Below, piece by piece: positions 22,614-58,448 of a DNA stretch of 64,000 bases (position 1 is the stretch's first letter; every line of letters begins with the position of its first letter). Made by a program: the position numbers and the translations under genes. The DNA is from Candidatus Magasanikbacteria bacterium CG_4_10_14_0_2_um_filter_33_14. Lineage in GTDB: Bacteria > Patescibacteriota > Patescibacteriia > Magasanikbacterales > UBA922. The stretch is taken from positions 9,669 through 73,668 of the forward strand of contig PFPL01000045.1 in NCBI GenBank assembly GCA_002793035.1, read 5' to 3'. Under the pieces are notes generated by a model, which was not told where the DNA came from, did not search any database, and worked only from the letters and a program-made list of their open reading frames with translations.

Positions 22614-22822
22614 AAGTGCATGAAAACATTTAAACATAAAAGTATCAAAACAATATAAATAAAAATAACAATAAAAAATTTATTATAAATATAAGTAAAA
22701 TGTTTTTATAATTTTGTTTTCTTGTTCTGGTATTTCATTGTTTTTATGAAATGAAATTATCAACACCTGCCCAATAATAGTAAAAAATGCTATACTACTT
22801 TTGTAACAATTAATCTTTTTAT

Positions 22823-23895: not shown

Positions 23896-26274
23896 ATGAA
23901 AAAACAAAAACAATTTTTAATTCCCGAAGTCCCAACAATATTTACCATCTTTGGAGCTACGGGAGACTTGATGGAACACAAAATTATTCCATCATTATTT
24001 TTTCTTTACAAACAAAAAAGATTACCAAAACATTTGAAAATTTTGGGCTTTGCGCGTCGTGATCTTAGTCATAAAGATTTTCGCAAAAAAGTATTGTCAG
24101 TTTTGCAAGAAATGAATTTTGTAAAAAATGAAAAACAGGCAGAAAAATTTTTGGAATTTTTTGAATACGTAAGAGGTGATTTTGCTGATGCTAAAAGTTT
24201 TGAAAGTTTGGGAGAAAAAGTAAAAGAAATAGAAGACGTTTGGAAAATTTGTGCTAACAAACTTTATTATTTAGCTGTGCCACCAAACTTCATGTCTGAA
24301 ATTGTGAGTAATTTGAAACGTACCAAACTTAGTGATCCTTGTGGTGGAAATATGGGATGGTCTCGTGTGATTGTGGAAAAACCAATTGGTTATGATAGAA
24401 ATAGTGCACAGGAATTGGAAAAGACATTGTCTATTTTGAAAGATGAACAAGTCTATCGCATTGATCATTATTTTGGTAAAGAAATGGTACAAGGAATTTT
24501 CAATTTTCGTTTTTCCAACAATTTTCTTGAGTCAGATTGGAACAATAAACATATTGAAAAAATTGAAATTAAGTTACTTGAAAGTATTGGCGTAGAAACT
24601 CGTGGAAATTTTTATGATAAAGTTGGTGCTTTGCGTGATGTGGGACAAAATCATTTACTTTCTGTTTTGGCTTTACTTGCCATGGACGATCCTCGTGATG
24701 CAAGTGCTGAAAGTGTGCGTGAGATGCGTGAAAAACTTTTGTCACAAATTACTATCATGAATAGTGAGGAAGTAAAAAAAAATACTTTTCGTGCTCAGTA
24801 CGAAGGTTATGACAATATTGCAGGAGTGGAAAAAAATTCTGAAACAGAAACTTATTTCAAATTGAAATTAAATATTGAATCTTTACGTTGGAGTGATGTA
24901 CCTATATATATTGAAAGTGGTAAGAAGGTTGGTCCTGCCAAAAAAGAAGTAGTAGTCACTTTCAAAGACCGTGAACCTTGTATTTGGTGTCAGCCGACTG
25001 GTCCTGCCAAAAATAAAGTAGTATTTTCTTTTGCACCTAAACAAGAAATAAATATAGATTTTTGGCAACGTAAACCAGGGTTTGAAGATGTACTAGAAAA
25101 ACGGGATTTCAAATTTTTGCTTTATAAAAAACAATCAAAATTTCCTTATGTGGAGGAGTATGCCAAACTTTTTTATGATGCCATACAGGGTCAACAGCGC
25201 TGGTTCATGACACGTGAAGAAGTTTTGCACGAATGGCGTATTGTTGATCCAATACTCAAAGCTTGGGAAAAAAGAAGTGTACCTCTTCATACGTATAAAG
25301 TGGATAATAGAGAAATTGTAGATATTGCTGACGACTTTTTCTTAACTAATGAAAAGAATTTCAAAAAAGAAATTGCTATTATGGGTCTTGGTCGTATGGG
25401 CGGAGGGTTGGCACAAAATTTGTTGGAAAAAGGCTGGAAAGTGGTTGGTCATAATAGAACTTGGGAAGTAACAGAAAAGTTGGAAAGTGTGGGTTTGACT
25501 GGCGCAAAAGAGGTAAAAGAAATGGTGGAAAAATTGATAGCGCCGAGAATAGTGTGGCTTATGTTACCAAACGGTAAACCTGTTGACGAGGCAATTTTTG
25601 ATAAAAAAGACGGGTTAATAAATTATTTAGAAAAAGGTGATATCATAATTGATGGAGGAAATTCTTATTTCAAGGACAGTGTTGAACGTGCTAAAAAATT
25701 GCAAAAATATGGTATTCACTTTCTCGATGCTGGTGTTTCGGGTGGTCCTGGTGGAGCTCGCAAAGGTGCTTGTGTGATGATTGGTGGTGACAAAAAAGTT
25801 TTCGCTAGTATTGAAACTCTTTTCAAAGATATGTCTGTTACCAATGGTTACGAATTTTTCCCTGGTTCTGGTGCTGGACACTTTGTCAAAATGGTTCACA
25901 ATGGAATTGAATATGGTATGATGCAAGCTCTTGGTGAAGGTTTCAATGTCATGAAAAAGTCTAATTACAAACTTGATTTGAAAAAAATCACTAGTGTGTA
26001 TAATAATGGTAGTGTGATTGAGTCCAGACTTGTTGGTTGGCTTTATGATGCTTTTGAAATTTATGGCATTGATCTCAAGAAGATAAGTGGTAAAGTAGAT
26101 AGTAATGGTGAAGGTGCTTGGACAGTAGATACTGCCAAAGCAATGAAATTGAAAGCAAAAGTAATAGAAGAATCTCTAAATTTTCGTAAACAATCACAAA
26201 AAAATCCAGATTATACTGGGCAAGTTGTTTCTGCTTTGCGGGGGCAGTTTGGGCAACACAAAGTAGAAAAGTGA
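23896..26274 (+). CDS. fused glucose-6-phosphate 1-dehydrogenase (Zwf) / 6-phosphogluconate dehydrogenase-like (Gnd) protein
   Basis: 792 aa. The N-terminus has G6PD motifs (FTIFGATGDLMEHKIIP; RIDHYFGKEMVQ). The C-terminal approx 300 aa has the 6PGDH NAD-binding fold (IAIMGLGRMGGGLAQNLLEKGWKVVGHNRT; GGNSYFKDSVERAKKLQKYGIHFLDAGVSGGPGGARKGACVMIGGD). Confidence 0.8.
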   Translation: MKKQKQFLIPEVPTIFTIFGATGDLMEHKIIPSLFFLYKQKRLPKHLKILGFARRDLSHKDFRKKVLSVLQEMNFVKNEKQAEKFLEFFEYVRGDFADAKSFESLGEKVKEIEDVWKICANKLYYLAVPPNFMSEIVSNLKRTKLSDPCGGNMGWSRVIVEKPIGYDRNSAQELEKTLSILKDEQVYRIDHYFGKEMVQGIFNFRFSNNFLESDWNNKHIEKIEIKLLESIGVETRGNFYDKVGALRDVGQNHLLSVLALLAMDDPRDASAESVREMREKLLSQITIMNSEEVKKNTFRAQYEGYDNIAGVEKNSETETYFKLKLNIESLRWSDVPIYIESGKKVGPAKKEVVVTFKDREPCIWCQPTGPAKNKVVFSFAPKQEINIDFWQRKPGFEDVLEKRDFKFLLYKKQSKFPYVEEYAKLFYDAIQGQQRWFMTREEVLHEWRIVDPILKAWEKRSVPLHTYKVDNREIVDIADDFFLTNEKNFKKEIAIMGLGRMGGGLAQNLLEKGWKVVGHNRTWEVTEKLESVGLTGAKEVKEMVEKLIAPRIVWLMLPNGKPVDEAIFDKKDGLINYLEKGDIIIDGGNSYFKDSVERAKKLQKYGIHFLDAGVSGGPGGARKGACVMIGGDKKVFASIETLFKDMSVTNGYEFFPGSGAGHFVKMVHNGIEYGMMQALGEGFNVMKKSNYKLDLKKITSVYNNGSVIESRLVGWLYDAFEIYGIDLKKISGKVDSNGEGAWTVDTAKAMKLKAKVIEESLNFRKQSQKNPDYTGQVVSALRGQFGQHKVEK

Positions 26275-35555: not shown

Positions 35556-35715
35556 AAAATTTTTTTAGATATTGTAATTATAACATATTTTTTGTAATTA
35601 GGTAACTAGGTCGTAGGTGTGAAAAATAAAACAGAGATACAATTTATATAAAAGGGAGATAATAAAAAAACTAGCTTATGAGCTAGTAGATATTTTTTAA
35701 ATTGTGTGTACCTCT

Positions 35716-35758
35716 CCGTCCCGATCGAATTGACTTCGATCGGGACGGATTGGGGTGG
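35716..35758. repeat. GC-rich hairpin repeat, copy 1
   Basis: CCGTCCCGATCGAA-ttgac-TTCGATCGGGACGG followed by attgGGGTGG; near-identical to the copy at 38309-38346. Confidence 0.55.
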
Positions 35759-37922: not shown

Positions 37923-38291
37923 ATGTCAGAAAATGCAAAAGTAAGTTGGGTAATATTTTTTATTTTTACCATTGGCTTTGGGTCTGGAGGTATTTTCGAT
38001 AACTGTGTGGTACACAGCGAAAACTGCTTCACGGCCAAGGAGGCCAAGGCTTGTGACATCTTCACGCTCGATGGTAAGACTGTCTACACCGTCAGCTGGC
38101 CCTACCCGGAGGATAAGGAGCACAAGTACTGCTCCGTGCCTGACATCATGGTCAGGTGCAAGGGACCTTCTGGAGAGCCGGCCTGTTTTGAGAAGGTGAT
38201 GATAAACGACGATGTCTACAACTTTCCGGAGTGGGGCATCTGCCCTGCAACACCGCCAGCTCCGAAGGCTGAGGCGGAGCCTGGAAGCTGA
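37923..38291 (+). CDS. small secreted/membrane-anchored Cys-rich protein with a GC-rich mature domain
   Basis: 122 aa. AT-rich N-terminal hydrophobic segment (VSWVIFFIFTIGFGSGG) followed by a GC-rich region with 8 Cys. Terminated by hairpin repeat copy 2. Confidence 0.5.
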   Translation: MSENAKVSWVIFFIFTIGFGSGGIFDNCVVHSENCFTAKEAKACDIFTLDGKTVYTVSWPYPEDKEHKYCSVPDIMVRCKGPSGEPACFEKVMINDDVYNFPEWGICPATPPAPKAEAEPGS

Positions 38292-38308
38292 CAACACGCG
38301 CTGCCAAA

Positions 38309-38346
38309 CCGTCCCTTTCGAATTATATTCGATCGGGACGGGGTGG
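38309..38346. repeat. GC-rich hairpin repeat, copy 2
   Basis: CCGTCCCTTTCGAA-ttata-TTCGATCGGGACGG-GGTGG. Confidence 0.55.
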
Positions 38347-38921: not shown

Positions 38922-40745
38922 ATGCAGAGCCTGTCAAAACTCAACAAAAATAAAAAAGCTTTTAGCCTCGTAGAAACTGTGGTGGCTATCGCTATTTTTG
39001 TTATTTTTGCTTTGGGTATTTATGGTAGTATCCAGTATATTTATAAAGTTATTTATAGTTCACGTGTCCAAATTATTGAGACAGCTATTTTAAACGAACA
39101 AATGGAAGTAATTAGAAATATGGATTTCAATGATGTTGGAATTGTTTCTTCGGTTCCTTTGGGTATCTTAAATAGAAATGTTACTGTGACTCGTAATGAC
39201 ATGGATTTTCTCGTTACTAGAAGTATTAGAAATATGGATGATCCGGCAGACGGTCTAATTGAAAATGGTACTGATAGTAATCCAAATGATTACAAATTAG
39301 TTTTTTTAGAAGTGATGTGTGTAAATTGTGCACAGCAAAAACCTCTTTCTATTTCTTCTTATGTGGCTGATTCTTTTCCTGAAAGTACCACCAATGCTGG
39401 AGCACTCTTTGTCAATGTGACAGATTCAAATTATAATCCTATGCAAGGTGCTACTGTTCACATTGTAAGTAATGAACCAAGTATTGATATCGACATGACT
39501 GATACTACAGATAATAATGGACAATTGAAAATATATAGTATCACTTCTTGTTACAAATGTTATGAAATAACAGTGTCTAAATCTGGTTATTTGTCTGATA
39601 GGACTTGGTCTGTTAGTGAATTTACCAGTTCAACTCCAGTAAATGAACATGCTACTGTAAATACTGAGGATGTGACTGATACTTTTTTTCAATTAGATGT
39701 GTCTTCTCAAGTTGATATTCAGACACTTAATCAAGAATGTACACCTGTAGGTAATGTTAGTTTGGATATAAAAGGTGGAGGTATTATTGGAACTGTAGAC
39801 GATGTGTATAGATTGGAAAGTACGATACAAACCGATAGTAATGGCGATTATTCTCTTACAAATTTACATTGGGGAGATTACGATTTTATGGTTAATAATT
39901 TCAATTATCTAGGTTCTATCCCTGCCCAACCTTTGGGTGTGTTGGCTGATTCTACTCAAATTCAAAGTATTATTGTGGCACCAAGTACTGCAAAATCTTT
40001 ATCTATTTTGGTCAAAGATGCTGGTAGTCAGTTGCCAATATCCAATGCCAAAGTGACTTTGACATCAGGGAGCAATGATTATATTAATTATACAGGTCTT
40101 GGTTTTTTGTATCAAAATGATTGGTCAGGTTTGTCTGGACATGAATTTTATGATTTTACTGTTGGTTATTGGTTGGCTAATAATATAGAGTACAATTCTA
40201 GTGAAAATCCTTTTGGTTTGAGATTGTCAGAAGTAAGTTCTGGACTTTATGAAAATTCTGGAACTCTTGAATCTGCTACTTTTGATTTTGGTAGTACAGA
40301 CGTTGATTATATTAATCTTGATTGGCAATATGACCAACCAACAAGTACTACAATTAAGTTTCAAATAGCCACTAGCAATTCTTCGACACCTAGTATTTGG
40401 GATTATTTAGGATCAGATGGTACAGGAGCTACTTATTATGATATTACGACTCAAGATATAAATGATATTCATGATGGTGATCGTTATTTACGTTATAAAG
40501 TATATTTGGACTCAGTAGATGAGGATCCTATTTCTGGTTATTCTCGTTATACTCCTACCGTTTCTGAAGTGGATATTTTTTATGTAAAGATTTGTAGTCT
40601 TCCTGGGCAATCTTATTTTGATACCATTGACCAAAGTTCTGGCAATACTATAAGTATTGAAGCTGATGGTTATGAGATATTAACTATAACGGATGTAGAC
40701 ATTAGTAGTAATATTACTACTTCTACAGAGTTGAATGCTTTATAG
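38922..40745 (+). CDS. large type IV pilin-like protein (prepilin-type N-terminus, big extracellular domain)
   Basis: N-terminal KKAFSLVETVVAIAIFVIF (prepilin cleavage/methylation-like, Ala at -1); 607 aa. Confidence 0.6.
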   Translation: MQSLSKLNKNKKAFSLVETVVAIAIFVIFALGIYGSIQYIYKVIYSSRVQIIETAILNEQMEVIRNMDFNDVGIVSSVPLGILNRNVTVTRNDMDFLVTRSIRNMDDPADGLIENGTDSNPNDYKLVFLEVMCVNCAQQKPLSISSYVADSFPESTTNAGALFVNVTDSNYNPMQGATVHIVSNEPSIDIDMTDTTDNNGQLKIYSITSCYKCYEITVSKSGYLSDRTWSVSEFTSSTPVNEHATVNTEDVTDTFFQLDVSSQVDIQTLNQECTPVGNVSLDIKGGGIIGTVDDVYRLESTIQTDSNGDYSLTNLHWGDYDFMVNNFNYLGSIPAQPLGVLADSTQIQSIIVAPSTAKSLSILVKDAGSQLPISNAKVTLTSGSNDYINYTGLGFLYQNDWSGLSGHEFYDFTVGYWLANNIEYNSSENPFGLRLSEVSSGLYENSGTLESATFDFGSTDVDYINLDWQYDQPTSTTIKFQIATSNSSTPSIWDYLGSDGTGATYYDITTQDINDIHDGDRYLRYKVYLDSVDEDPISGYSRYTPTVSEVDIFYVKICSLPGQSYFDTIDQSSGNTISIEADGYEILTITDVDISSNITTSTELNAL

Positions 40746-40760: not shown

Positions 40761-41378
40761 ATGATCAAAAATAAAAAAGCTTTTACTCTAATTGAAATTA
40801 TCGTTGTGATGGCTATTTTTTCTATTTTGGTGGCAGGATCTTCTTGGTTTGTGATTGGTACCAACAAAGATTTGGCGGTAATGTGGGAGCAACTAATCAC
40901 TCAAAATGAAGGTAAAAAAACTATTGATCATGTTGTCAATTATGTACGTCGTGCTGAGACATCTAGTGTTGGAGCTTATGCTTTGGATACTACAGAAGAG
41001 TACAATTTGGTTTTTTATGCCAATGTAGATGATGATTCTATGATAGAAAAGGTGAAATTTTGGTTGGATACAGATAATATCTTAAAAGAAACTATAACCA
41101 AGCCAAGTAGTACAGCTTCTTCCAATTTATATGAAAATGGATCATCATATACAGTAAATTTAGCTGAAAATGTGAAAAATATGATTGTTGGTAATCCTGT
41201 CTTTTTGTATTATGACGAAAATTATACGGGGATAGGTAGTCCTCTTAGTGGTAATTTCAATTTTACTGATGTACGTGTAGTACAGGTTCAGTTAGAATTA
41301 GAAAAAGATCCTACAAAAACACCAGTACCTTTGCATGTAGAGAGTAAAGCTTTTATTAGGAGTACGAAAACAAATTAA
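40761..41378 (+). CDS. type IV pilin / pseudopilin-like protein
   Basis: N-terminal KKAFTLIEIIVVMAIFSILVAG. Confidence 0.65.
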   Translation: MIKNKKAFTLIEIIVVMAIFSILVAGSSWFVIGTNKDLAVMWEQLITQNEGKKTIDHVVNYVRRAETSSVGAYALDTTEEYNLVFYANVDDDSMIEKVKFWLDTDNILKETITKPSSTASSNLYENGSSYTVNLAENVKNMIVGNPVFLYYDENYTGIGSPLSGNFNFTDVRVVQVQLELEKDPTKTPVPLHVESKAFIRSTKTN

Positions 41379-41417: not shown

Positions 41418-42746
41418 ATGAAAGATTTTTTTAAGAAGTTAAAACTAAATAAAAAAGGATCGGCTTTTCTTTTTGTCATGGTTTTTGGTTTTATTGGTTT
41501 TATGACTATTACTATTGGGATGACTTCTTATGCTATTTTCGAGTCCAAGGCTTCGAAACAGACTTATCGAAAAGATCTAGCCTTTCATATTGCGGAAGCT
41601 GGAATAGATTATTATCGTTGGCATCTAATGAGTTCTCCAGAAGATTATTATGATGGACAGGGTAGTGGTGCTATTGGTCCTTATGTTCATGATTATTATG
41701 ATAAAGATGGTAATGTTGTTGGTACTTTTTCTATTGAAATAGATGTGCCTCCACAGGGTACTTATGTTGTGGCTGTTCGTTCGACTGGTTGGTCACTTGA
41801 AAATCCTAATAGTAAACGCACTATAGAAGCTTATTTTGGTTATGAATCTTTTAGTGATTCTTCTTTTGTTGTTAATGCTGATATGCGCTTTAGTTCTACT
41901 AGTTTTGTTCATGGTAAGACATTTGCTAATGGTTGTATAGAGTTTGATGGTACTAGTGATTCTTGGGTAGATAGTGCTAAAGGAGCCAATCAGTGTTCTT
42001 ATGGCAATGATGGCGTTTATGGTACAGGTGGACCAACAGAATTTTGGCGTTATGGTTTGCCGGTAAGAAGTTTTGCTGGTATTGGTGATAATTTTGATAT
42101 GTTAAAAGATATGGCCAATTCACCAGAAGGAATCAATTTAGGATCATCAAGTCGTTGGCATATTGTCTTTTTAGACAATGGTACTTTCAATTTGTATCGT
42201 GTAAATAATTATTCTTCAACTAAATATGATATAACTTCAGAAACTTTTCAAAGTAATCAGAGTTTACCTGAAAATGGTGTTATTTATAGTACTCGTAGTA
42301 TTTGGGTAGAAGGTGTTGTCAAAGGTAGAGTCAGTGTTGTAGCTGATAATGGGGCGGCAATTTTAATCCCGGGTAATCTCTTATATAGTGAAAAACATGC
42401 TGATGATATTTTGGGTTTATTGTCTGACACAAATATCATAATTCCGTATGATGTCCCTAATGATATGGAAATTGATGGAGCTTTATTGGCTAAATCGGGA
42501 AGTATTTCTAGGCCATATTTTTCTTATAGTTATGGAAGCAAATACATTAGAGATTCTTTGAGTGTTTTTGGTTCACAAATACAATATTCTAGCGGTGGTT
42601 TAAAATGGGTTAATAGTTATGGTACAATAATATCTGGATTTATTGATACTATTTATACCTATGATGGAAATTTACTTTATAAACCACCCGTTGGTATTCC
42701 TGTTATTCCGGAATATAAGCTTATTAGTTGGCATGAACTTAATTAG
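41418..42746 (+). CDS. PilX-like pilus-associated protein
   Basis: N-terminal KKGSAFLFVMVFGFIGFMTITIGMTSYAI resembles the PilX N-terminal domain. Confidence 0.45.
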   Translation: MKDFFKKLKLNKKGSAFLFVMVFGFIGFMTITIGMTSYAIFESKASKQTYRKDLAFHIAEAGIDYYRWHLMSSPEDYYDGQGSGAIGPYVHDYYDKDGNVVGTFSIEIDVPPQGTYVVAVRSTGWSLENPNSKRTIEAYFGYESFSDSSFVVNADMRFSSTSFVHGKTFANGCIEFDGTSDSWVDSAKGANQCSYGNDGVYGTGGPTEFWRYGLPVRSFAGIGDNFDMLKDMANSPEGINLGSSSRWHIVFLDNGTFNLYRVNNYSSTKYDITSETFQSNQSLPENGVIYSTRSIWVEGVVKGRVSVVADNGAAILIPGNLLYSEKHADDILGLLSDTNIIIPYDVPNDMEIDGALLAKSGSISRPYFSYSYGSKYIRDSLSVFGSQIQYSSGGLKWVNSYGTIISGFIDTIYTYDGNLLYKPPVGIPVIPEYKLISWHELN

Positions 42747-42826: not shown

Positions 42827-43693
42827 ATGCAAAAAGTTCGTAAAGGAGTAATAACTGTGGCTGGGTTTGGGACTAGGTTTTTACCTGCTACCAAAGCCAT
42901 GCCAAAAGAAATGTTGCCTGTTTTAGATAAACCAGTTTTGCAATATATAGTAGAAGAAATGGTGGCTAGTGGAATTACCGAAATTATTTTGGTAACAAGT
43001 TCACAAAAGCGTGCTATCGAGGACCATTTTGATAGAGACAAAGATTTTGAAAATTTTTTAGAGAGTAAAGGAAAGCTAGAAAAAATTAGTTCATTAATTG
43101 ATTTATCAAAAAAAGTAAGATTTTTTTATACTAGACAAGCAGAACCTTTGGGTAATGGTCATGCTTTGTTATGTGCTCGTGAATTTATAGGTGACGAGCC
43201 TTTTGTATTTTCTGATGGGGATAGTATTATCGATTCAAATGTACCTGTAGTCAAACAACTTTTGAAAGTTTTCAAAAAACAAAATGCTTCGGTAATTGGG
43301 GTGCAAAAAATAACAGACACAGAAGCTATGACTAAGTATGGCAATGTCTATGGTAAAGCTATCAAAGAAAAAAAGACATATAGAGTAACAGAATTCATAG
43401 AGAAACCAAGTATAGAAAAAGTATCCAAAGATGGTTTGATTGTGGGTGGAATGCGTTATGTTTTTACCAAAGATATTTGGGCGATGCTTGAGTCACAAAA
43501 GAAGGGAAGAGATGGTGAAATTTGGTTGTCAGATGCTGCCAATGCTTTGGCTCAAAAGAAAAAATTTATGGCTTATGAATATGAAGGTGTTTATTTTGAT
43601 ACGGGAGACAAATTAGCCTTACTCAAGGCCTCCATACATTTCGCCAAAAAAGATCCGGATATTAAAGATAAAATAGACGAATTATTAGTTTAG
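42827..43693 (+). CDS. galU: UTP--glucose-1-phosphate uridylyltransferase
   Basis: GVITVAGFGTRFLPATKAMPKEMLPV... Confidence 0.85.
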   Translation: MQKVRKGVITVAGFGTRFLPATKAMPKEMLPVLDKPVLQYIVEEMVASGITEIILVTSSQKRAIEDHFDRDKDFENFLESKGKLEKISSLIDLSKKVRFFYTRQAEPLGNGHALLCAREFIGDEPFVFSDGDSIIDSNVPVVKQLLKVFKKQNASVIGVQKITDTEAMTKYGNVYGKAIKEKKTYRVTEFIEKPSIEKVSKDGLIVGGMRYVFTKDIWAMLESQKKGRDGEIWLSDAANALAQKKKFMAYEYEGVYFDTGDKLALLKASIHFAKKDPDIKDKIDELLV

Positions 43694-43708: not shown

Positions 43709-44440
43709 ATGAAGTTTGGAATTTATAAAATATTTGGAATATTGGTGTTTGTTTTTGTTATATCTTTTTTTAAGATTGATTTGGTTTTTTCTGAAAGTAA
43801 ATATTGTAAGTGTACTTCAGACAAAGGTGTTTGCGAAGAAGGGGCAAAGTTAAAAAGTGATTGTGATAAGATGGTACAAGATTCAAATGGTCAATTTACT
43901 CAATGTGTAATGACAACTACTGATAAAAATTGTTCTGCTCTTGCTACGTCTAGAAAATTCTGTGCTTGTGCTGCTGACAAAAGCGATTGTGGTCCTACTA
44001 TTTATGCTGACTTACCAGAATGTGATAGGAACAAAGGTGCTGTCAATGCTAGTTACCAATGTATTCAAGTTGAAAATGGAAAAGGCTGTAGTTCACTTGT
44101 GGATGCTACCCAAAATGGTGATCAATCTGGTAGTAGTCAAGGAGGTTCAGCTTCTAGCTTTCTAGGTGATTTGGACCCACAAATAAAAGGATTAAATAAA
44201 TTACAAGGTGTAGATAATTTACAACAACTGATTGGTCGTGCCATTTCTGCTCTCTTGGGTATTTTGGGTTCTATAGCTTTGGTTATGATGCTTTTTGGTG
44301 GATTTACTTGGATGACTTCTGCTGGTAATGTTGAAAAAAGGAAAAAAGCTACAGGTATTATAATTTGGTCTGTGTTGGGCGTGTCTATCATTTTTGCTAG
44401 TTACGCTATGGTTAATTTTGTTTTGGATATCTTTAAATAA
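43709..44440 (+). CDS. VirB2/TrbC-like (T4SS-pilin-like) two-TM protein with N-terminal Cys-rich ectodomain
   Basis: Signal peptide, about 10 Cys, then LFGGFTWMTSAGNVEKRKKATGII + second TM (family core). Confidence 0.5.
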   Translation: MKFGIYKIFGILVFVFVISFFKIDLVFSESKYCKCTSDKGVCEEGAKLKSDCDKMVQDSNGQFTQCVMTTTDKNCSALATSRKFCACAADKSDCGPTIYADLPECDRNKGAVNASYQCIQVENGKGCSSLVDATQNGDQSGSSQGGSASSFLGDLDPQIKGLNKLQGVDNLQQLIGRAISALLGILGSIALVMMLFGGFTWMTSAGNVEKRKKATGIIIWSVLGVSIIFASYAMVNFVLDIFK

Positions 44441-44445
44441 ATATT

Positions 44446-45825
44446 ATGTTTAAAAAAATTTCAGTGCTCTCTCTTCTTTCTATATTTTTGTTGACAGCTG
44501 GGTTTGGTTGTAAGAGTGTTTCACAAACTGAGCAAGCATCTATTAAGGCGGTTAAGCTTACTTATTGGACTGTGTATAATGATGTGGATGAGTTACGTGT
44601 TTTGGCACAACAATATACACAGCGTTATCCACATGTGTCTATCAATATAAAACAAGTAAAATATGAGGAATTTGATAGTTTGTTTACCAATGCTTTGGCT
44701 GATGATGTTGGTCCAGATATTGTTTCTCAGCACGTGAGGTGGCTTCGTAAAAATCAATCTAGATTATTACCAGCACCTGGAGTAACAAAGATGCATCGTA
44801 TTGTAATTGCCAATAATTTTTCAAAAGAACAACAATTTTTGACAGATTCCAATGCTTTGCCTTCTGCTAGTTATATAAAAAATAATTATGTTCAAACTGT
44901 TTATAATGATGTTGTGCTCGACAAACAAATTTATGGTTTGCCTTTGTCTATGGATACTCTTTCTATTTTTTATAATCAGGATTTACTTGATAGAGCAGGT
45001 ATTGCCGAAGCCCCAAAAAATTGGAATGCTTTTGCTGAAGATGTCCAAAAACTTACTAAGTTCAATAGTATTGGAGATATCATCCAATCTGGTGCAGCTC
45101 TTGGTACTGCCAATAATATCAATGCCGCTACAGATATCATTGCTATGTTTATTATGCAAAGTGGACTAAAAGTAGCTAGTGGTAATACAGTTACTTTTGC
45201 GGCAGGTATAGACAAAGCTCAAGATAGAAATGTATCTATTTTGAGTGCTCTTGATTTTTATACTGATTTTGCTAGACCTACCAAAGAAGTTTATAGTTGG
45301 AATGAAAAGAAAGGTGATGCCTTAGATGAATTTGTTCGTGGTAGAGTAGGTTTTTATTTTGGTTATTCTTATGATTTTGCAACTATAAAACAAAGATCTC
45401 CTCAAATGAATTTACGTATTATGCCAATGCTACAGCTTGATCCAGAAAATCCAAGCAATGTAGCTAATTATTGGGTGGAGTCAGTCGTCCAAAAAACAAA
45501 ATATCCAAATGAAGCTTGGGATTTTGTAAGGTTTATTACTTCTCCAGAAAATGTAGCCAAGTATACAGAAAAGATTTTTAGTCCAAGTCCAATTCGTGCA
45601 CAAATCACACTTCAACAGGAAGATGAAAATCTTGGACCTTTTGCTACGCAAGCTTTATTTGCTGAAAATTGGTACAAAGGTAAAGATGTGGATGCTGTCG
45701 CTACTTCTTTTGATTCTATGATTACAGAACTTTTGAAACCATCTGATGATGAAAATGATTTATTGAAAAAAGATAAGCAAATCATTATTAATACCGCTGC
45801 CAGAATTCAGCAGACAATGCAATAA
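44446..45825 (+). CDS. orphan extracellular solute-binding lipoprotein (SBP family 1-like)
   Basis: Lipobox LTAGFGC; MalE-like sugar SBP blocks; no adjacent permease or ATPase. Confidence 0.65.
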   Translation: MFKKISVLSLLSIFLLTAGFGCKSVSQTEQASIKAVKLTYWTVYNDVDELRVLAQQYTQRYPHVSINIKQVKYEEFDSLFTNALADDVGPDIVSQHVRWLRKNQSRLLPAPGVTKMHRIVIANNFSKEQQFLTDSNALPSASYIKNNYVQTVYNDVVLDKQIYGLPLSMDTLSIFYNQDLLDRAGIAEAPKNWNAFAEDVQKLTKFNSIGDIIQSGAALGTANNINAATDIIAMFIMQSGLKVASGNTVTFAAGIDKAQDRNVSILSALDFYTDFARPTKEVYSWNEKKGDALDEFVRGRVGFYFGYSYDFATIKQRSPQMNLRIMPMLQLDPENPSNVANYWVESVVQKTKYPNEAWDFVRFITSPENVAKYTEKIFSPSPIRAQITLQQEDENLGPFATQALFAENWYKGKDVDAVATSFDSMITELLKPSDDENDLLKKDKQIIINTAARIQQTMQ

Positions 45826-45828
45826 TAT

Positions 45829-47112
45829 ATGAAAAATTTTTATAAAATTTTATTTTTTACAGTAATATTGTTTGCTTCATTATTTTCTTTGCAGAGTACT
45901 GTTTTAGCAGCTGGTCCTGTAGATGATTTTTTTTCTTCCGTAGACAAAGGTTTGAATTATCAGTGTTGCCTGTTGAAAAGGTCAAATGATCAGACTGTAG
46001 CTTGTGTAAAAAATCATACAGTAGGGGGTGGTTCAAGAATAGGTTGTTATGAAAATTATTCTGATCCTGAAACTGTAAATGCTAGGATTCAAGAAATGTA
46101 TTATAGTGGTGATACTTTGTATGATTTTAGGACTCAAAATATAACAAAGTTAGAGAATGTCGACTGTAATGCTATTGCTGCTTGTGTAGAGTTTTCAGAT
46201 CAAGAAAAAATGTTTTCAGGTACAATAAGTAAAAGTGATTTTGATTTAATTAATATAGCTACTTTCAATGTCAAAGTATCAAAAATGTTGCCTGTTACTG
46301 ATTATAATTTTAGTAAATTAGAATGTATCAATTGTAATATCACGCCAGGATTAAAAGCTACTAGTGGTAGTTTTTCTATATCAAATAGTAATTTGAGTGT
46401 ACATGAACTAACTATGAATTTTGAGTTGACGCCTTACGAGTATATAAAGGGGAGTCAAGACAAAAAGTTGCCAGCTACTGTTAATTTAGAATTTAAGGCT
46501 AGTGGAAAAACATCTGAGGGTAAAGATCTTACAACTTTTTTAAAATTTCCTTTGATTATAAAAGGAGCCAACTGTAAAGATTTTGATAATGATGAAGCAA
46601 AATGTTCTACCAATAGTGGCTGTCTGTTTGTTTCTGCAACCAAAAAATGTGGAGAAGTCGCCGATGCTTCTCTATGTAGTGTCTTGAACAAAAATGAGTG
46701 TGCCGTTTCTATAGCTTGTACACAGGATGCTAACGAAAAGTGTGTAAGCAATGTTTCCAAAGCTGTAGATGAATATATTGCCAAGGATCATCAAATGCCT
46801 AAAGGTTATTCAGGGCCTTTACCTGAGTGTGCTTTTGATGGCTCTTGTCGTGATGTAAACAAGTTGGTAGAGCTAGCGCTAAAAGTAGTTGATTATTTGT
46901 TTTCTATTGTAGCTGGTTTAGCTTTCGTTTTCTTTATTTATGGAGGATTTACTTGGATATTTTCTTTTGGAAATCCCGAAAAAGTAAAAAAAGGTCAACA
47001 GATTTTTGTCTATGCTGTGATTGGTCTTATCATTGTATTTAGTGCTTATATATTGGTTAGTTTCTTGCTCAATGTTTTGGGTGTGAATGATGCATATATA
47101 ATTATAAATTAA
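45829..47112 (+). CDS. VirB2/TrbC-like two-TM protein with large N-terminal Cys-rich ectodomain
   Basis: Signal peptide, approx 330-aa Cys-rich region, then IYGGFTWIFSFGNPEKVKKGQQI + TM. Confidence 0.5.
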   Translation: MKNFYKILFFTVILFASLFSLQSTVLAAGPVDDFFSSVDKGLNYQCCLLKRSNDQTVACVKNHTVGGGSRIGCYENYSDPETVNARIQEMYYSGDTLYDFRTQNITKLENVDCNAIAACVEFSDQEKMFSGTISKSDFDLINIATFNVKVSKMLPVTDYNFSKLECINCNITPGLKATSGSFSISNSNLSVHELTMNFELTPYEYIKGSQDKKLPATVNLEFKASGKTSEGKDLTTFLKFPLIIKGANCKDFDNDEAKCSTNSGCLFVSATKKCGEVADASLCSVLNKNECAVSIACTQDANEKCVSNVSKAVDEYIAKDHQMPKGYSGPLPECAFDGSCRDVNKLVELALKVVDYLFSIVAGLAFVFFIYGGFTWIFSFGNPEKVKKGQQIFVYAVIGLIIVFSAYILVSFLLNVLGVNDAYIIIN

Positions 47113-47119
47113 AAAAATT

Positions 47120-47482
47120 ATGAAAATATCTTTTAAGAGTTCATTTTTTCTTATAATGTCTGTGGCTTTATCATTTTTTGTTTATAATTTGGTACAGGCT
47201 GTGAATTGTGAGGACAATAGAACTTGTCTAGAAAACCCCATAAAAAGTAATACTATTCCGGAAATTTTTGGTAATGGAATTAAGATATCTACTGGTATTA
47301 TGGGTTCACTTGCGTTGTTAGTTTTTATTTATGGTGGGGCTGTTTGGCTTACTTCTGCAGGCAATCCAGAAAAAGTAAAGAAAGGTACGAGTGCTATGGT
47401 TTGGGCTGTGTTGGGTATGGTTGTTATTTTTAGTAGTTATGCTATAATTAACCTAGTTTTGAATGGGTTGGGAGTAAATTAA
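47120..47482 (+). CDS. VirB2/TrbC-like small two-TM protein (paralog)
   Basis: IYGGAVWLTSAGNPEKVKKGTSA. Confidence 0.55.
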   Translation: MKISFKSSFFLIMSVALSFFVYNLVQAVNCEDNRTCLENPIKSNTIPEIFGNGIKISTGIMGSLALLVFIYGGAVWLTSAGNPEKVKKGTSAMVWAVLGMVVIFSSYAIINLVLNGLGVN

Positions 47483-47633
47483 AACATTGATTGCACGGAT
47501 TTAATAAGATTACACTGATATTTACTTAGTAAGAATATAATTACGATAAATAAGTTATAAAATACTTACAATATTTTTTAAAAAAATATAATTATGTTAA
47601 AAAAAACTTTTGCATTGAAGGGAGGTGATACAC

Positions 47634-48083
47634 ATGAATTTGTTATATAAGCTTGCTAAATACAAAACAGTTCTTTCAATTATTTTTGTATTAGCTTTAG
47701 GACTTGTGCTATCACCAAATTTGGCTATGGGTCAAGGTTATGATCCAAATGATCCATTCGGCGTTGACGTCGTTGAACAAGGTGATGGTTCAGAGGGAGG
47801 CGGACTTGCTCTAGGTACTTCAGATTTGAGAGCTACTATCGTTAGAGTAATCAATATCGCTTTGAGTTTACTTGGTATCGTAGCTGTTGTCGTCGTACTT
47901 ATCGGTGGTTTCCAATGGATGACTGCTGGTGGTGATGACGGTAAAGTAGAAACAGCTCGTAAATGGATTTTCTCAGGTATTATTGGTCTTGCTATTATTC
48001 TTAGTGCTTGGGCTATCGCTAGATTTGCTCTTGTCAATCTTGGTAACGCTACCAACACTCCTGGTGCTGAAAATTATCAATAA
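47634..48083 (+). CDS. VirB2/TrbC-like small two-TM protein (paralog)
   Basis: GGGAGGTG RBS then ATG; LIGGFQWMTAGGDDGKVETARKWI. Confidence 0.55.
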   Translation: MNLLYKLAKYKTVLSIIFVLALGLVLSPNLAMGQGYDPNDPFGVDVVEQGDGSEGGGLALGTSDLRATIVRVINIALSLLGIVAVVVVLIGGFQWMTAGGDDGKVETARKWIFSGIIGLAIILSAWAIARFALVNLGNATNTPGAENYQ

Positions 48084-48205
48084 ATTTAAATTTCAGAGCA
48101 GATATTTGCAAAAATATTCTGCTCTGAATATTTATTTTGAGAGGATAAAAAATTATTTTTCACAAAAATTTTTGGAAAATCATCTTTTATTCTTTATAAA
48201 ACATT

Positions 48206-48634
48206 ATGATAAACAAAAAGTTAATTAATTTAGTTTTTGTTTTTTTATTTGCTTTCGCTGTCTTGGTACCAGCTAGTGCACCAACTTTGGCAGCGCCTAG
48301 TTCTACTTGTGATCAAGAAGGGGATTTATTGGGTCTTGGTTGTGTAGGAAGTAATACAGGTCTTAGTGACAAAGATCCTCGTATTATTATTGTCCAAATT
48401 ATAAATGTTATACTTGGTTTATTGGGAATCGTAGTTACTGTGCTTATTGTCTATGCTGGATTTTTGTGGATGACAGCCGGTGGTGAAGAGTCAAAAGTAG
48501 AAAAGGCAAGAAAGATTATTGTTGCAGCCATTATTGGACTTGCTATTATCTTGTCAGCTTTTGCTATTACTAGGTTTGTTTCTTTTGGTCTTTATCAAGC
48601 AACAATGGGTAGTGAATATCCTGTTGCTAAATAA
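48206..48634 (+). CDS. VirB2/TrbC-like small two-TM protein (paralog)
   Basis: VYAGFLWMTAGGEESKVEKARKII. Confidence 0.55.
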   Translation: MINKKLINLVFVFLFAFAVLVPASAPTLAAPSSTCDQEGDLLGLGCVGSNTGLSDKDPRIIIVQIINVILGLLGIVVTVLIVYAGFLWMTAGGEESKVEKARKIIVAAIIGLAIILSAFAITRFVSFGLYQATMGSEYPVAK

Positions 48635-48644
48635 TTTTGTATTT

Positions 48645-49310
48645 ATGAATAATAAAAAATTTTTTTTAACATTTGGATTCCTTACTGGTTTTTTTCTTCT
48701 GGTTATGATGTTTGCTCCAGGTTTTGCTTTTGCTGACAATTATGGTCTAGATGCAACTGCTGGAGCCGCAGGTTTGCCTAGTGGTGTAGATTTGCCAACT
48801 GTTTTGGGTAATGTGATTGGTACAGCACTTTCTATGATTTCTGTATTATTTTTTGGTCTCATGCTTTATGGTGGAATTATGTGGATGACAGCCAGGGGAA
48901 AGAGTGAAAACACTCAAAAAGCACTTGATACTATTATCGCAGCTATCATTGGTGTGGTGATTGTCTTGGCTGCTTATGCTATTACCAATTTTGTTTTTAG
49001 TAACGTTCAATCTGGAGCGGGTGGTGCAGGTGGCGGAACTGGAGGAACTGGAGGCAATAATACTCCACCTGTTTCTCAGTCATGTGTTATTGGTAATACA
49101 GAGGTTTCTAGTTTTTGTTCTACAGCATGTAATGTTGTTCAGGATGCTTGTACAGGAAATGATTACTGTCAAGATTTTTGTAAACCTAATGATACAGGTC
49201 TTCTTTGTATTCCTATGGCTTCTCAATCCTCTTTGTGTTCTGTATATTCTAATGTTATTGCAAATTGTACAGCTGTAGAGTCTGACACAGAATTGTGTAA
49301 AGTACAATAA
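48645..49310 (+). CDS. VirB2/TrbC-like two-TM protein with Gly-rich linker and C-terminal Cys-rich domain
   Basis: LYGGIMWMTARGKSENTQKALDTI; SGAGGAGGGTGGTGGNN linker; 12 Cys in the last approx 85 aa. Confidence 0.5.
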   Translation: MNNKKFFLTFGFLTGFFLLVMMFAPGFAFADNYGLDATAGAAGLPSGVDLPTVLGNVIGTALSMISVLFFGLMLYGGIMWMTARGKSENTQKALDTIIAAIIGVVIVLAAYAITNFVFSNVQSGAGGAGGGTGGTGGNNTPPVSQSCVIGNTEVSSFCSTACNVVQDACTGNDYCQDFCKPNDTGLLCIPMASQSSLCSVYSNVIANCTAVESDTELCKVQ

Positions 49311-49314
49311 ATTT

Positions 49315-49686
49315 ATGCGTAAATTTTTGGTAACAATTTTATTTGTAGGAATTAGTCTATTTTCTGTTTCCAATGTTTATGCAAAAAAAACTTTGAATGA
49401 TGCTGATAGTGCACTAGATACTGTATCTCAAAAAACAGGAATTGATCAAAAAGATTTTTCAGCTGTTACAGGAAATGTAGTGAACATGATTTTTATTTTT
49501 GTAGGGTTGATATTTTTTGCTTTGATGGTCTATGCTGGTCTCCGTTGGATGACAGCTCGTGATCAAGCCGACAAAGTAGAAAAGGCTAGAAATACGATGA
49601 TAGCCGCTGTGATAGGTCTTATAATCGTCGTAGCCGCTTATGCTATTACCAATTTCTTACAAACCAAAATTATAAATGGTGGTTAA
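49315..49686 (+). CDS. VirB2/TrbC-like small two-TM protein (paralog)
   Basis: VYAGLRWMTARDQADKVEKARNTM. Confidence 0.55.
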   Translation: MRKFLVTILFVGISLFSVSNVYAKKTLNDADSALDTVSQKTGIDQKDFSAVTGNVVNMIFIFVGLIFFALMVYAGLRWMTARDQADKVEKARNTMIAAVIGLIIVVAAYAITNFLQTKIINGG

Positions 49687-49695
49687 AATTTTCAT

Positions 49696-50067
49696 ATGAA
49701 AAAAATAAAAAATATTTTTGCAAATTTGTTTATAGCTTTTATATTGGCTTCATCTTTTACTTTGCCGGTATTTGCTCAAGGTATCAAAAATGCTGGTGAT
49801 AATCTAGATCCTATCGCTCAAAAAGCGGGGATTACTGAAGGTGATGTCGGAAATATTACGGGTACTGTTATCTCTGCTATTTTGAGTCTGGTTGGTATTA
49901 TTTTTCTAATTCTCATGGTTTACGCTGGTATTATTTGGATGACAGCCAGAGGTGATGATAGTAAGACTGAAAATGCTAAGAAAACGATTACAGCCTCAAT
50001 AATAGGTCTTTTTATAGTAGTAAGTGCTTATGCTATTACTCAATTTGTAACTAGTAGATTTAACTAA
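49696..50067 (+). CDS. VirB2/TrbC-like small two-TM protein (paralog)
   Basis: VYAGIIWMTARGDDSKTENAKKTI. Confidence 0.55.
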   Translation: MKKIKNIFANLFIAFILASSFTLPVFAQGIKNAGDNLDPIAQKAGITEGDVGNITGTVISAILSLVGIIFLILMVYAGIIWMTARGDDSKTENAKKTITASIIGLFIVVSAYAITQFVTSRFN

Positions 50068-50072
50068 ATTTT

Positions 50073-50480
50073 ATGAAATATATATTTTTTTCTTTTCTAC
50101 TTATTTTTTCTTTTGTTACTTTTGCGCCACAAGCTTTGGCTTTGGATTTGGGAGGTGACACTCTAAAAAATGCTGCTGACAAAGGTGGTTATGACAAAAA
50201 TACCAATGAAACAACTTTGGCTAGCAATATTGGTATGGTAGTGAATATTATCTTGTCTATTATTGGTGTTTTGTTCACTGTTTTGATGGTTTATGCTGGA
50301 TATACTTGGATGGTAGCTAGAGGTGATGAGACAAAGATAGATAAGGCTAAGAAAATTATTACAGCTTCTATTATTGGACTTATTATTACACTTGGAGCTT
50401 ATAGTATTACCAACTTCATTATTCCAAGAATACTTGATCAGACTCTTGCTCAAGTAAATAGTTGGTTATTATTTGTCTAA
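50073..50480 (+). CDS. VirB2/TrbC-like small two-TM protein (paralog)
   Basis: VYAGYTWMVARGDETKIDKAKKII. Confidence 0.55.
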   Translation: MKYIFFSFLLIFSFVTFAPQALALDLGGDTLKNAADKGGYDKNTNETTLASNIGMVVNIILSIIGVLFTVLMVYAGYTWMVARGDETKIDKAKKIITASIIGLIITLGAYSITNFIIPRILDQTLAQVNSWLLFV

Positions 50481-50482
50481 TT

Positions 50483-50899
50483 ATGAATAAATTCTCAAAA
50501 ATTATTTTAACTTTAATTTTTTCAGTGATAATTTTGTCTCCTTCGCTTTCTTTGGCACAGACAAATACCTCTACCAAAAGTACCAAAGACTCAGCTTTGG
50601 AACAACTTCACGCTGGCGCAAATGGAGCAGGCCTTCAAGAACAATCTAGTGATCCTAGAATTATTGCCTCTCGTATTATAAAAACATTCCTTAGTTTATT
50701 GGGTACGATGTCAATTTTCTTGTTTGTATATGCTGGATATCTACTTATAACATCACATGGTGAATCAGAAAAAGTGACAAAAGCCCGAAAGATTATGACT
50801 GGGGCAGTGATTGGTATGCTTTTGATATTACTTTCATTTAGTATTACGAATTTTGTAGGTAACAAATTGCAAGAGAGTATAAATCAGACTTCTAATTAA
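50483..50899 (+). CDS. VirB2/TrbC-like small two-TM protein (divergent paralog)
   Basis: VYAGYLLITSHGESEKVTKARKIM. Confidence 0.5.
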   Translation: MNKFSKIILTLIFSVIILSPSLSLAQTNTSTKSTKDSALEQLHAGANGAGLQEQSSDPRIIASRIIKTFLSLLGTMSIFLFVYAGYLLITSHGESEKVTKARKIMTGAVIGMLLILLSFSITNFVGNKLQESINQTSN

Positions 50900-50904
50900 T
50901 ATTT

Positions 50905-51372
50905 ATGATTAGAAAAAAAATAATTTTATTTTTGTTGGTAATCCTTGGTGTTTTCTGCTTTACAAATTTTTCTTTAGCGGTAAACTCTACTACTGAGAGT
51001 CTTATTGATTCTATAAATTCTCAGAACCAGGCTTTTGAAAATAGTTCAGAAGTGGGTGCCCCACAAGACATTAGAATAATTATAGCTAAAATTATAAAAA
51101 TATTTTTGGGTTTTGTTGGGTTTTTAGCCACTGCCTATTTGGTATATGGTGGTTATTTGTATATGACTTCTGCTGGTAATGAAACTAGAGCAGAGGATGC
51201 TAGTAAAATTATGCTGTATAGTGCTCTAGGTATCTTTATTATTTTGGCTTCTTATAGTATAACCAATTTTGTATATAAATCATTTCAAGCAAGTTTAGAA
51301 CAGACACAGACGACAGGTAGCCAAAATTCTGGTGGAACAAATTTTTCCAATGAAAATTCTTTTAGACCGTAA
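50905..51372 (+). CDS. VirB2/TrbC-like small two-TM protein (divergent paralog)
   Basis: VYGGYLYMTSAGNETRAEDASKIM. Confidence 0.5.
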   Translation: MIRKKIILFLLVILGVFCFTNFSLAVNSTTESLIDSINSQNQAFENSSEVGAPQDIRIIIAKIIKIFLGFVGFLATAYLVYGGYLYMTSAGNETRAEDASKIMLYSALGIFIILASYSITNFVYKSFQASLEQTQTTGSQNSGGTNFSNENSFRP

Positions 51373-51416
51373 CTTGAAAAGAAATTAATTTTTTAGTCTG
51401 ATGAAAAGTCAGACTT

Positions 51417-52777: not shown

Positions 52778-52914
52778 ATAATATAGTCTAATGTCGAAAG
52801 TCTATAAAGTCCTTAAAGTCGACAGTGAATTAATTTTTTAGTTTAAACTTTTTATAAATCCATAAAGTAATTTTCATATAAGAAAGACTTTATAAACTTT
52901 ATGAACTTTAGACT

Positions 52915-53331: not shown

Positions 53332-53467
53332 AGATATTGATTTATTTTGTAATTAAGTATAGTATACCAAATAGTTTATAAAGTAGAAAGTTTATAAAGT
53401 TAATTCAAGCGGAAATGGGAACGGGGAATGAGGAATGAATTTTTTAAATCAGTGAAATCAATGTTTT

Positions 53468-55468: not shown

Positions 55469-55574
55469 AGTATAAGTTCATAAAGTTAAAAGCCTGCCTG
55501 CAGGTTCATAAAGTAATTGTAAATTTAAAATACTTTTAACTTTAAAAACTTTATGAACTTTGTAAACTTAGTTT

Positions 55575-57961: not shown

Positions 57962-58448
57962 AGGGTGATTTTTACTTGTTTTTATTTAGGAAAAGGTCTG
58001 TATTTTCTTTCGGTATTGGAATAACACAAATTTTACACAAATCGACACAAATATTTTTAAAGACTTTCGACTTTATAAACTTTATGAACTTTTGACTCAT
58101 GTATATTTTACGCTATTTTGTGAACTTAATCAATCTATACAAGGCGGACTAAATTTTTTTTAAAACATTTTTTGGATAACATCTGTACATTTTGTGGATA
58201 ACTTTTTTATTTTTGTGCGTATCTTTTTTGTGCTTGTTTTTTTATGGCTAAACTAAGCCGAAGATAGGTCGTTTTGAGCAATTCAAAACTATGTGTTATA
58301 ATAGTTATTGTCTACAAAAAACACAAGATGTTGTGTGAAAAGATTTATTAGACCACTATATATAGTATTATTTTAATTTAGAATTTTTTAGAAAAGAAAA
58401 ATTAGTTTGTGTGATTTTTGTTTTTTAAATTCTAATTTTTTATAAATT

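Follow-up and report, generated by a model that had tools for sequence, protein, structure and literature searches.

Variable cysteine-rich modules fused to either end of conserved VirB2-like pilin cores in a gene array of a Candidatus Magasanikbacteria genome

Why should a small pilin-like core carry a cysteine-rich domain at its N-terminus in some proteins and at its C-terminus in another protein of the same gene array? This question was raised by three genes (43709-44440, 45829-47112, and 48645-49310) in a 64,000-nucleotide stretch of DNA, hereafter the window, from the ultrasmall groundwater organism Candidatus Magasanikbacteria bacterium CG_4_10_14_0_2_um_filter_33_14 (contig PFPL01000045.1). 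Their products, of 243, 427, and 221 amino acids (aa), are identical to PIZ95785.1, PIZ95787.1, and PIZ95791.1, which are annotated as hypothetical proteins on an 89.8-kb contig of a Crystal Geyser Candidatus Magasanikbacteria metagenome-assembled genome. The lineage is assigned to the Patescibacteria class ABY1 in a table of PMC12102498. An earlier note, made from the DNA letters and open reading frames (ORFs) alone, had regarded the three proteins as adhesin-like modules joined in either orientation to a pilin-like core. In this study, we found that the modules are strain-level replacement hot spots and that the cores are under strong purifying selection, which is the strongest signal of the analysis.

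The three genes belong to an array of 11 PF18895-type genes, all on one strand (43709-51372), in which a single solute-binding protein (SBP) gene splits members 1 and 2. A signal-peptide-like N-terminus, two long hydrophobic helices, and a short Lys/Arg-rich loop between them are common to all 11 proteins. Ten members, including all three fusions, matched PF18895 (T4SS_pilin, VirB2/TrbC-like) at 29.4-50.4 bits, above the gathering score of 26.6, and the eleventh (50483-50899) reached 26.4 bits. The layout of PF18895, namely a putatively cleavable signal sequence at the N-terminus and then a pair of hydrophobic helices with a short basic loop, was also recovered by hydropathy and structure prediction; the inter-helix loops hold two to five Lys/Arg residues each. 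Mutual core identity among the window paralogues was 22-43%. NCBIfam NF045849 was matched by all 10 members scanned, of which one (49696-50067) passed its cut-off (44.5 versus 40), and 8 of these 10 gave sub-threshold matches to TrbC/VirB2 PF04956. By sequence, then, the array proteins are classed as distant relatives, not members, of the classical TrbC/VirB2 family. No PF18895 protein of the array matched the N_methyl or class III signal motif (IPR012902, PF07963), whereas two upstream genes (38922-40745 and 40761-41378) did. The core is thus assigned from its profile matches to the conjugative (VirB2/TrbC) pilin type and not to the type IV pilins, so that "pilin-like" holds in the VirB2 sense only. 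The array, with 11 genes and one intervening SBP gene, also agrees with the definition in PMC12102498, by which at least two pilin genes lie in tandem or are parted by one non-pilin gene.

The three ORFs that join a core to a Cys-rich module were confirmed, each running without an internal stop. In the 243-aa protein of position 1 (43709-44440, + strand; PF18895 E=7.4e-10), a signal-peptide-like segment (residues 1-28; 43709-43792) is followed by a module with 12 Cys (residues 31-131), a Gly/Ser linker (44102-44203), and the PF18895 core with its transmembrane-like segments (residues 168-238; 44204-44437). The module consists of two tandem 6-Cys repeats (43799-43945 and 43955-44101), whose alignment score was 76.5, compared with -1 ± 9 for shuffled sequences. 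The 427-aa protein of position 2 (45829-47112, +) has a signal peptide (residues 1-27; 45829-45909), a 313-aa ectodomain with 18 Cys, and a C-terminal PF18895 core (residues 343-413; hairpin segment 46849-47109). In the 221-aa protein of position 6 (48645-49310, +), the order is reversed: a signal peptide (residues 1-30; 48645-48734) precedes the mature N-terminus and hairpin (48735-49010; core residues 50-117), the Gly-rich linker SGAGGAGGGTGGTGGNN (residues 123-139; 49011-49061), and a tail (residues 140-221; 49062-49307). This tail contains 10 Cys, not the 12 counted before, which was the only error found in the earlier note. Cys density was 5.8-11.8% in the modules, whereas 42 other window genes averaged 0.7% (binomial P 1e-10 to 1e-12).

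Structure prediction with AlphaFold2 gave helix-loop-helix cores for the 427-aa protein (343-378/383-416) and the 221-aa protein (50-82/87-124), with predicted local distance difference test (pLDDT) values of 78-89. For the 427-aa protein, the model was built from 39 aligned sequences with a mean pLDDT of 81, and it places, in order, a small alpha/beta distal domain (residues 45-125), an immunoglobulin (Ig)-like beta-sandwich (129-245), a Cys-rich region (249-307), a short helix, and the hairpin. The corresponding DNA segments are 45910-46203 for the fast-evolving distal domain, 46204-46563 for the sandwich, and 46564-46848 for the Cys-rich region, which contains a PxCAFxGxC motif directly ahead of the first core helix; in the family of this protein, both Cys of the motif are at least 90% conserved. 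Structural neighbours of the Ig-like sandwich include adhesin and pilin domains. In the model of the 221-aa protein, the core reached pLDDT 84-89 and the tail stayed below 50, so that modelling of the Cys-rich modules yielded a usable ectodomain for one protein and no usable tail for the other. The modules, predicted to be extracytoplasmic and disulfide-rich, resemble recognition or adhesin modules, in agreement with their earlier description as adhesin-like.

It was also considered whether a frameshift or misassembly had fused separate genes. The exact proteins recurred on 17, 18, and 23 contigs, which are independent and come from several projects and data sources. A second Magasanikbacteria genome (GCA_001784405.1, hereafter L005) contains the same 11 genes in the same order, with the SBP gene between members 1 and 2, and the arrangement recurs in six more distant loci (L006, L008, L010, L012, L013, and L014). 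Orthologous fusions were present in many assemblies, and in the 427-aa protein purifying selection acted both ahead of the module-core junction (residues 246-340, dN/dS 0.21) and behind it (core, dN/dS 0.04). A search for internal ribosome-binding sites was uninformative because clear Shine-Dalgarno motifs are not apparent in this genome, and conservation of intact ORFs was the better test for the same reason. The uninterrupted ORFs, the identical proteins, and the syntenic orthologues leave the artefact next to no chance; the fusions are genuine single genes.

Comparison of the window with L005 located the variation. The flanking genes and the eight plain pilins showed 92-100% protein identity, compared with 65%, 74%, and 63% for the 243-, 427-, and 221-aa fusions, respectively. 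When the plain pilins were pooled in a Nei-Gojobori analysis, dN was 0.017 and dS 0.228 (dN/dS 0.08). Along the 427-aa protein, dN fell from 0.46 (residues 28-125) to 0.11 (126-245), 0.07 (246-340), and 0.01 (core); its first ~100 mature residues had diverged to 49% DNA identity (45843-46127) and 43% protein identity by tblastn. Gene 1 of L005 has an additional 93-aa Cys module inserted immediately behind its signal peptide. For the 221-aa protein, L005 has an altogether different tail: identity extends up to the last codons of the Gly linker and returns at the start codon of the next gene. Moreover, a contig from another sample (L011) was ~100% identical in DNA to positions 48372-49031 of the window and then only 33-55% identical, and beyond this breakpoint it carries an L005-like tail that is 75-88% identical to that of L005. 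These sequences indicate alternative tail alleles on a near-identical background.

The same contrast between tail and core was seen over a greater distance. The 221-aa protein has 185 homologues, and among the best 120 of them, 111 carried a C-tail of 41-234 aa. These 111 tails fell into 66 BLAST clusters, 44 of them singletons, while the 111 cores all aligned with one another at a median identity of 65%. The 86-residue tail of the window protein had no phmmer match among 1.84 billion representative proteins, and no homologue among 170 relatives or in 94 related loci. Taken together, module exchange with near-constant cores suggests that these proteins may be variable surface-recognition devices. 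As to how exchange might occur, module-coding DNA was not repeated anywhere in the 64 kb, where only the paralogous cores repeat (60-76% identity), and no reverse transcriptase was present among the ORFs scanned; because the module DNA is unrepeated, a diversity-generating retroelement or a silent-cassette (pilS-like) mechanism is unsupported locally.

To assess how common such extensions are, we scanned GTDB species representatives, which gave at least 560 relatives, and kept 80 loci, mostly from Magasanikbacteria and Falkowbacteria, for a census by an ORF and hidden Markov model pipeline. Start codons were picked heuristically, and N-extensions of at least 100 aa and C-extensions of at least 40 aa were counted. 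Among 677 core-containing ORFs, 110 were N-extended, 169 were C-extended (9 proteins carry modules at both termini and are counted in both groups), and 407 were plain; hence ~40% (270/677) were extended. An even number of Cys was found in 101 of the 110 N-extensions and 149 of the 169 C-extensions (250/279 overall). The arrays, the largest of which has 14 genes, are polar: N-extended genes come first, plain genes follow, and C-extended genes lie in the distal half. For the 427-aa protein, 44 homologues were identified. Forty of these have a Cys-rich N-extension of 157-531 aa and a C-terminal PF18895 core, and the remaining four (P0041-P0044) bear C-extensions of 519-603 aa and combine PF18895 with Big_5 (PF13205). 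Cys numbers were even and non-zero in 41 of 44 N-extensions of these homologues and in 110 of the 111 C-tails described above. Within the syntenic arrays, position 1 was N-extended in all four genomes compared (by 167, 260, 376, and 487 aa, with one to three copies of the 6-Cys repeat adjoining the core) and position 6 was C-extended in all four (by 99, 99, 273, and 229 aa). Position 3 is plain in the window and carries modules at both ends in L008 and L010. Attachment at either end, which the earlier note had called unusual, is indeed so when compared with classical VirB2, but it is routine in this clade.

When the ectodomains of relatives were searched against Pfam, one Dickkopf_N-like match lay just above the cut-off (28.4 versus 25 bits), and matches to DUF7107, DUF4215, SH3_3, and EB were all sub-threshold. 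As side observations, arrays of 13-14 members with extensions of more than 500 aa at either end occur in L028 (N504 and C506) and other loci. Gene 1 of L008 (7248-8603) has an N-extension of ~270 aa that looks SGNH/GDSL-hydrolase-like by eye (VLVIGSSL), with no Pfam match and unconfirmed; if this domain is real, enzymatic modules are grafted on VirB2-like cores besides the Cys-rich ones.

A topological explanation of attachment at either end is plausible on the basis of the predicted helices and signal peptides. Each array member would be exported by its Sec-type signal peptide, and the hairpin would insert with its short Lys/Arg-rich loop toward the cytoplasm and both mature termini outside: the loop is expected to be cytoplasmic because of the positive-inside rule, and the mature N-terminus outside because of the signal peptide. 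Pilins of the VirB2 family agree with this layout: both ends of F-pilin are periplasmic, and TrbC and VirB2 undergo head-to-tail cyclisation. Because both hairpin termini would be outside, a module grafted at either end should be displayed on one outer face, and relatives with modules at both ends exist; in this respect, the either-end arrangement would cease to be odd. The paired Cys of the modules would form disulfides outside the cell, and the near-universal even Cys counts fit oxidative folding there. Patescibacteria (candidate phyla radiation) are reported to be enriched in MdbA-like oxidoreductase and VKOR (bioRxiv 10.1101/335083), which fits such folding as well.

The architecture of these proteins, its conservation, the Cys statistics, the gradient of variability, and the replacement of cassettes were observed directly, whereas the topology, the disulfides, a binding function, and incorporation into a filament are inferred. 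The hairpin would serve as a conserved scaffold and the grafted modules as its variable, ligand-facing parts, with the membrane-distal piece swapped between strains by recombination; one breakpoint lies within the Gly-linker coding sequence. The decorated paralogues (positions 1, 2, and 6) would be minor or decorating components of a VirB2-type polymer, which a type IV secretion system (T4SS) with genes elsewhere would assemble mainly from plain paralogues, and they would give host- or surface-recognition specificity to an epibiotic Patescibacterium. In doing so, they would take the place of VirB5 or PrgB adhesins, which Patescibacteria lack. This proposal, in which fast-changing, disulfide-stabilised recognition modules are displayed on a conserved cell-surface or pilus scaffold, is the likeliest reading, and we judge the chances that it holds in full to be evenly balanced.

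Several results weigh against this proposal. Genes for virB4, virD4, and virB6 were not found in the window or in 10 kb upstream of it, and by a crude filter for Walker A and size, no VirB4-like ORF lay within ±10 kb of the 80 related arrays. No array member reached the gathering score of PF04956 (27.9 bits), the best match being that of the 427-aa protein (23.7 bits, E=5.7e-5). A sequence search of the PDB with the core profile recovered no solved conjugative pilin, and Foldseek of the 221-aa model against the PDB gave nothing below E=1, helical hairpins being uninformative in such searches. (Designed "Pizza" propellers, returned by the core-profile search, were discarded as spurious matches through a short GxxWxT motif.) Polymerisation of PF18895 proteins has been established in no organism. 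The extended proteins would be minor subunits at best, because a 313-aa module on every subunit should crowd a VirB2-type helix. Finally, the L011 allele comes from a single 981-bp contig of low coverage. As to the secretion genes, 181 ORFs near the 80 arrays reached 450 aa, and only 11 of these had a Walker A motif; those that clustered looked DnaA-, FtsH-, or PilB-like by N-terminal sequence. ABY1 T4SS loci adjoin comF, recG, and radA, and Magasanikbacteria are mostly VirB4-positive in Table S1 of PMC12102498; a T4SS is probably encoded elsewhere in this genome.

The missing T4SS ATPase, near the array here and in the 80 related loci, would be expected if the PF18895 hairpin were only a two-helix anchor that stays in the membrane and displays variable Cys-rich ectodomains, or short peptides in the case of plain members, on the cell surface, and no pilus were made. 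The hairpin is hydrophobic enough for two transmembrane segments, and ectodomains of up to ~500 aa fit an anchor better than a tightly packed helical polymer. However, a mere anchor would hardly call for as many as 11 conserved paralogues, of which six expose no more than 20-40 residues and are subject to strong purifying selection (dN/dS 0.08). Moreover, the family is homologous to conjugative pilins, and PF18895 proteins lie inside an essential T4SS cluster in Saccharibacteria (PMC10633639, PMC12857230). We therefore consider an anchor without a pilus to be doubtful, if quite conceivable. The array might instead be a membrane platform or accessory for the adjoining modular type IV pilins, with no part in a T4SS. 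Three type IV pilus (T4P)-like pilin genes and galU precede the array in the same order in L005, L008, L010, L012, L013, and L014, including genomes with another downstream flank, so that the order of three T4P-like pilin genes, galU, one PF18895 gene, the SBP gene, and ten PF18895 genes is kept in seven genomes; in the window, pilB, pilC, pilM, pilN, and pilO lie 3-12 kb upstream. This upstream block may be a functional unit that links two pilin classes. On the other hand, the T4P machinery should be unable to process or polymerise PF18895 proteins because they show no N-methylation or class III signal motif, and the linkage may be inherited gene order within one class; such a partnership is improbable.

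A constant N-terminal part joined to a hypervariable C-terminal part after a fixed linker also resembles polymorphic toxin loci, and some tails match Cys-knot-like models (Dickkopf_N, DUF4215, and EB module). The Cys-rich C-tails might accordingly be cut at the Gly linker and secreted as toxins, signals, or effectors, with the hairpin as an export carrier. But no toxin or peptidase domain was found, the next gene is not a variable immunity-like gene but a pilin paralogue that is 95% identical between strains, and the like behaviour of the N-terminal modules is inexplicable by release of C-tails, which makes release very improbable. A polymorphic toxin locus of the CdiA-CT/Rhs-like kind was rejected as well, since the variable C-terminus is accompanied by neither a co-varying immunity gene nor a toxin domain. 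Display on a conserved VirB2-like scaffold may also be given a more specific form: Magasanikbacteria and related ABY1 members would possess a conserved, stand-alone "modular VirB2 pilin" organelle locus, made up of the T4P-like pilin genes, galU, the SBP gene, and 9-14 PF18895 genes, in which the conjugative-pilin fold has become a general display scaffold, open to modules at either end or both, and bears orphan, disulfide-rich tip cassettes whose swapping by recombination sets the host range of the epibiont. This form is put forward tentatively, as possible but rather unlikely.

How do these proteins compare with known systems? In Bartonella and Anaplasma, the paralogues vary in short exposed segments and adhesion proceeds through a separate VirB5-like protein (TrwJ), and grafted domains or disulfide-rich modules are not known for these subunits. 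What they share with the present array is tandem amplification of T4SS surface subunits, as in the trwL/trwJ copies of the Bartonella Trw T4SS (PMC2883598, PMC3406051) and the VirB2 paralogues of Anaplasma; the amplification in Bartonella has been interpreted as widening or changing host-surface recognition (PMC2883598, PMC3406051). Among Patescibacteria, 441 VirB2-like pilin arrays of 2-11 genes have been reported (Quinonero-Coronel et al. 2025, PMC12102498), a six-gene array is essential in Southlakia epibionticum ML1 (Wang et al. 2023, PMC10633639), and such arrays are unique to Patescibacteria among monoderm T4SSs (PMC12102498, PMC10633639, PMC12857230). The window array resembles these arrays in its PF18895 core, its tandem paralogues of low identity, its tolerance of one non-pilin gene, and its chromosomal location, and its 11 genes equal the published maximum. 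It differs in its ectodomains, Cys-rich modules, and cassette exchange, the pilins described in the passages searched being small only, and in its neighbours, namely T4P-like pilin genes, galU, and an SBP gene with no adjoining virB4, in place of the comF, recG, and radA of the ABY1 T4SS locus (PMC12102498). Neither the passages searched in these papers nor full-text searches of the literature on PF18895 (T4SS_pilin) yielded a description of ectodomain-bearing or cassette-swapping members. VirB2-like arrays are already published, and their modular, cassette-swapping members appear, within these searches, to be undescribed.

Other comparisons are more distant. Modular type IV pilins, such as PilB and PilC of Streptococcus sanguinis, also use a small polymerising or anchoring pilin module to display a grafted functional module on a short linker, and a tip location has been proposed for bulky modules (Raynaud et al. 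2021, PMC8179133). This is an analogy only: they belong to a different pilin superfamily from the PF18895 proteins, and it is the 607-aa protein at 38922-40745 that represents the T4P class in the window. With a class III signal peptide and a single N-terminal helix, type IV pilins can take modules only at the C-terminus, whereas the VirB2-type hairpin should accept them at either end or both. The VirB5/TraC/CagL and PrgB-type adhesins are like the role proposed here in making contact between a T4SS surface structure and a target cell, but they are made as proteins of their own, soluble or wall-anchored, and have no pilin hairpin, whereas here the adhesin-like module would be built into the pilin gene; PrgB-type adhesins went undetected in Patescibacteria (PMC12102498). 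The Mbov_0395 family of pilin-like conjugal transfer proteins, from integrative and conjugative elements of Mycoplasma (NF045849), likewise comprises small proteins with two helices that serve conjugation in a monoderm. Its profile of 80 positions implies short proteins without ectodomains, and 9 of the 10 window proteins scanned were below its cut-off.

The remaining array members and their neighbours are all on the + strand. The plain pilin paralogues, assigned by Pfam, are those of position 3 (47120-47482; 120 aa, one Cys pair immediately ahead of the core, 99% identity to its L005 orthologue), position 4 (47634-48083; 149 aa from the ATG at 47634, with GGAGG 8 nt upstream), position 5 (48206-48634; 142 aa), and positions 7-11 (49315-49686, 49696-50067, 50073-50480, 50483-50899, and 50905-51372; 93-100% identity to L005). 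A terminator-like hairpin lies 3' of the last pilin gene (51395-51415; terminator scan). A promoter scan of the window gave 46 candidates, compared with 41 expected from shuffles, i.e., no excess. Upstream of the array are a modular type IV pilin of 607 aa with N_methyl and CarboxypepD_reg matches (38922-40745), a 205-aa protein with an N_methyl match (40761-41378), a type-IV-pilin-like protein of 442 aa without a Pfam match (41418-42746), and a GalU-like nucleotidyltransferase (42827-43693; Pfam). The gene inside the array (44446-45825; SBP_bac_1 by Pfam and synteny) stands between members 1 and 2 in all seven syntenic arrays in which gene order was read, and 45 of the 80 related loci contain large ORFs that form a homologous cluster. 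Next to the SBP gene, neither an ABC permease gene nor an ATPase gene was seen.

The window itself is a low-GC (~33%) chromosome segment that starts just after dnaA, with dnaN at 371-1498, and several other features were recorded along it. At 6001-8000, GC rises to 0.45 (versus ~0.32) over a 407-aa ORF (6666-7889) with no Pfam match and long antisense ORFs; this segment adjoins a tRNA-Cys gene (6488-6562) and is considered a strain-variable islet, given that other genes occupy the site in strain L004. A secreted protein of 1257 aa (10186-13959), with five lamin-tail domains, PKD domains, and an oligonucleotide-binding (OB) fold (tRNA_anti-codon), is another large surface protein, possibly nucleic-acid-binding. 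Few long ORFs are present at 20300-22800, where two direct-repeat pairs occur (20924-20967/21070-21113 and 21230-21282/22589-22641) and Rfam gave no match at gathering threshold. In a single 792-aa ORF (23896-26274), a glucose-6-phosphate dehydrogenase domain is joined to a 6-phosphogluconate dehydrogenase domain. A GC-rich palindromic element (CCGTCCC..TCGAATT..TTCGATCGGGACGG) is present twice (35711-35753 and 38304-38346), and between its copies lie rpsF-ssb-rpsR and a small ORF for a secreted, Cys-rich product (37923-38291; 8 Cys, no Pfam match). The motif GACTTTATAAACTTTATGAACTTT is repeated at 52867-52909, 55519-55561, and 58050-58092, with an inverted copy at 53368-53405, and is a candidate shared promoter or operator.

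These findings touch the question of how Patescibacteria, as ultrasmall epibionts, select their hosts and stay attached to them. The T4SS/VirB2-like array is essential in one genetically tractable species, and its function has been called "completely unknown" (PMC11665869). The modular array members, which make up ~40% of the total in one large clade, are concrete candidates for what determines specificity, and it is predicted that module alleles track host or partner identity across samples. The conserved core and the breakpoint at the linker also offer a handle for mining and classifying cassettes in metagenomes, and the idea of a modular pilin would be extended from type IV pili to the conjugative-pilin fold. 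If the tentative organelle locus were to prove true, it would determine host range in a way comparable to the tips of phage tail fibres, and no earlier modular-pilin system would be known from the VirB2 class.

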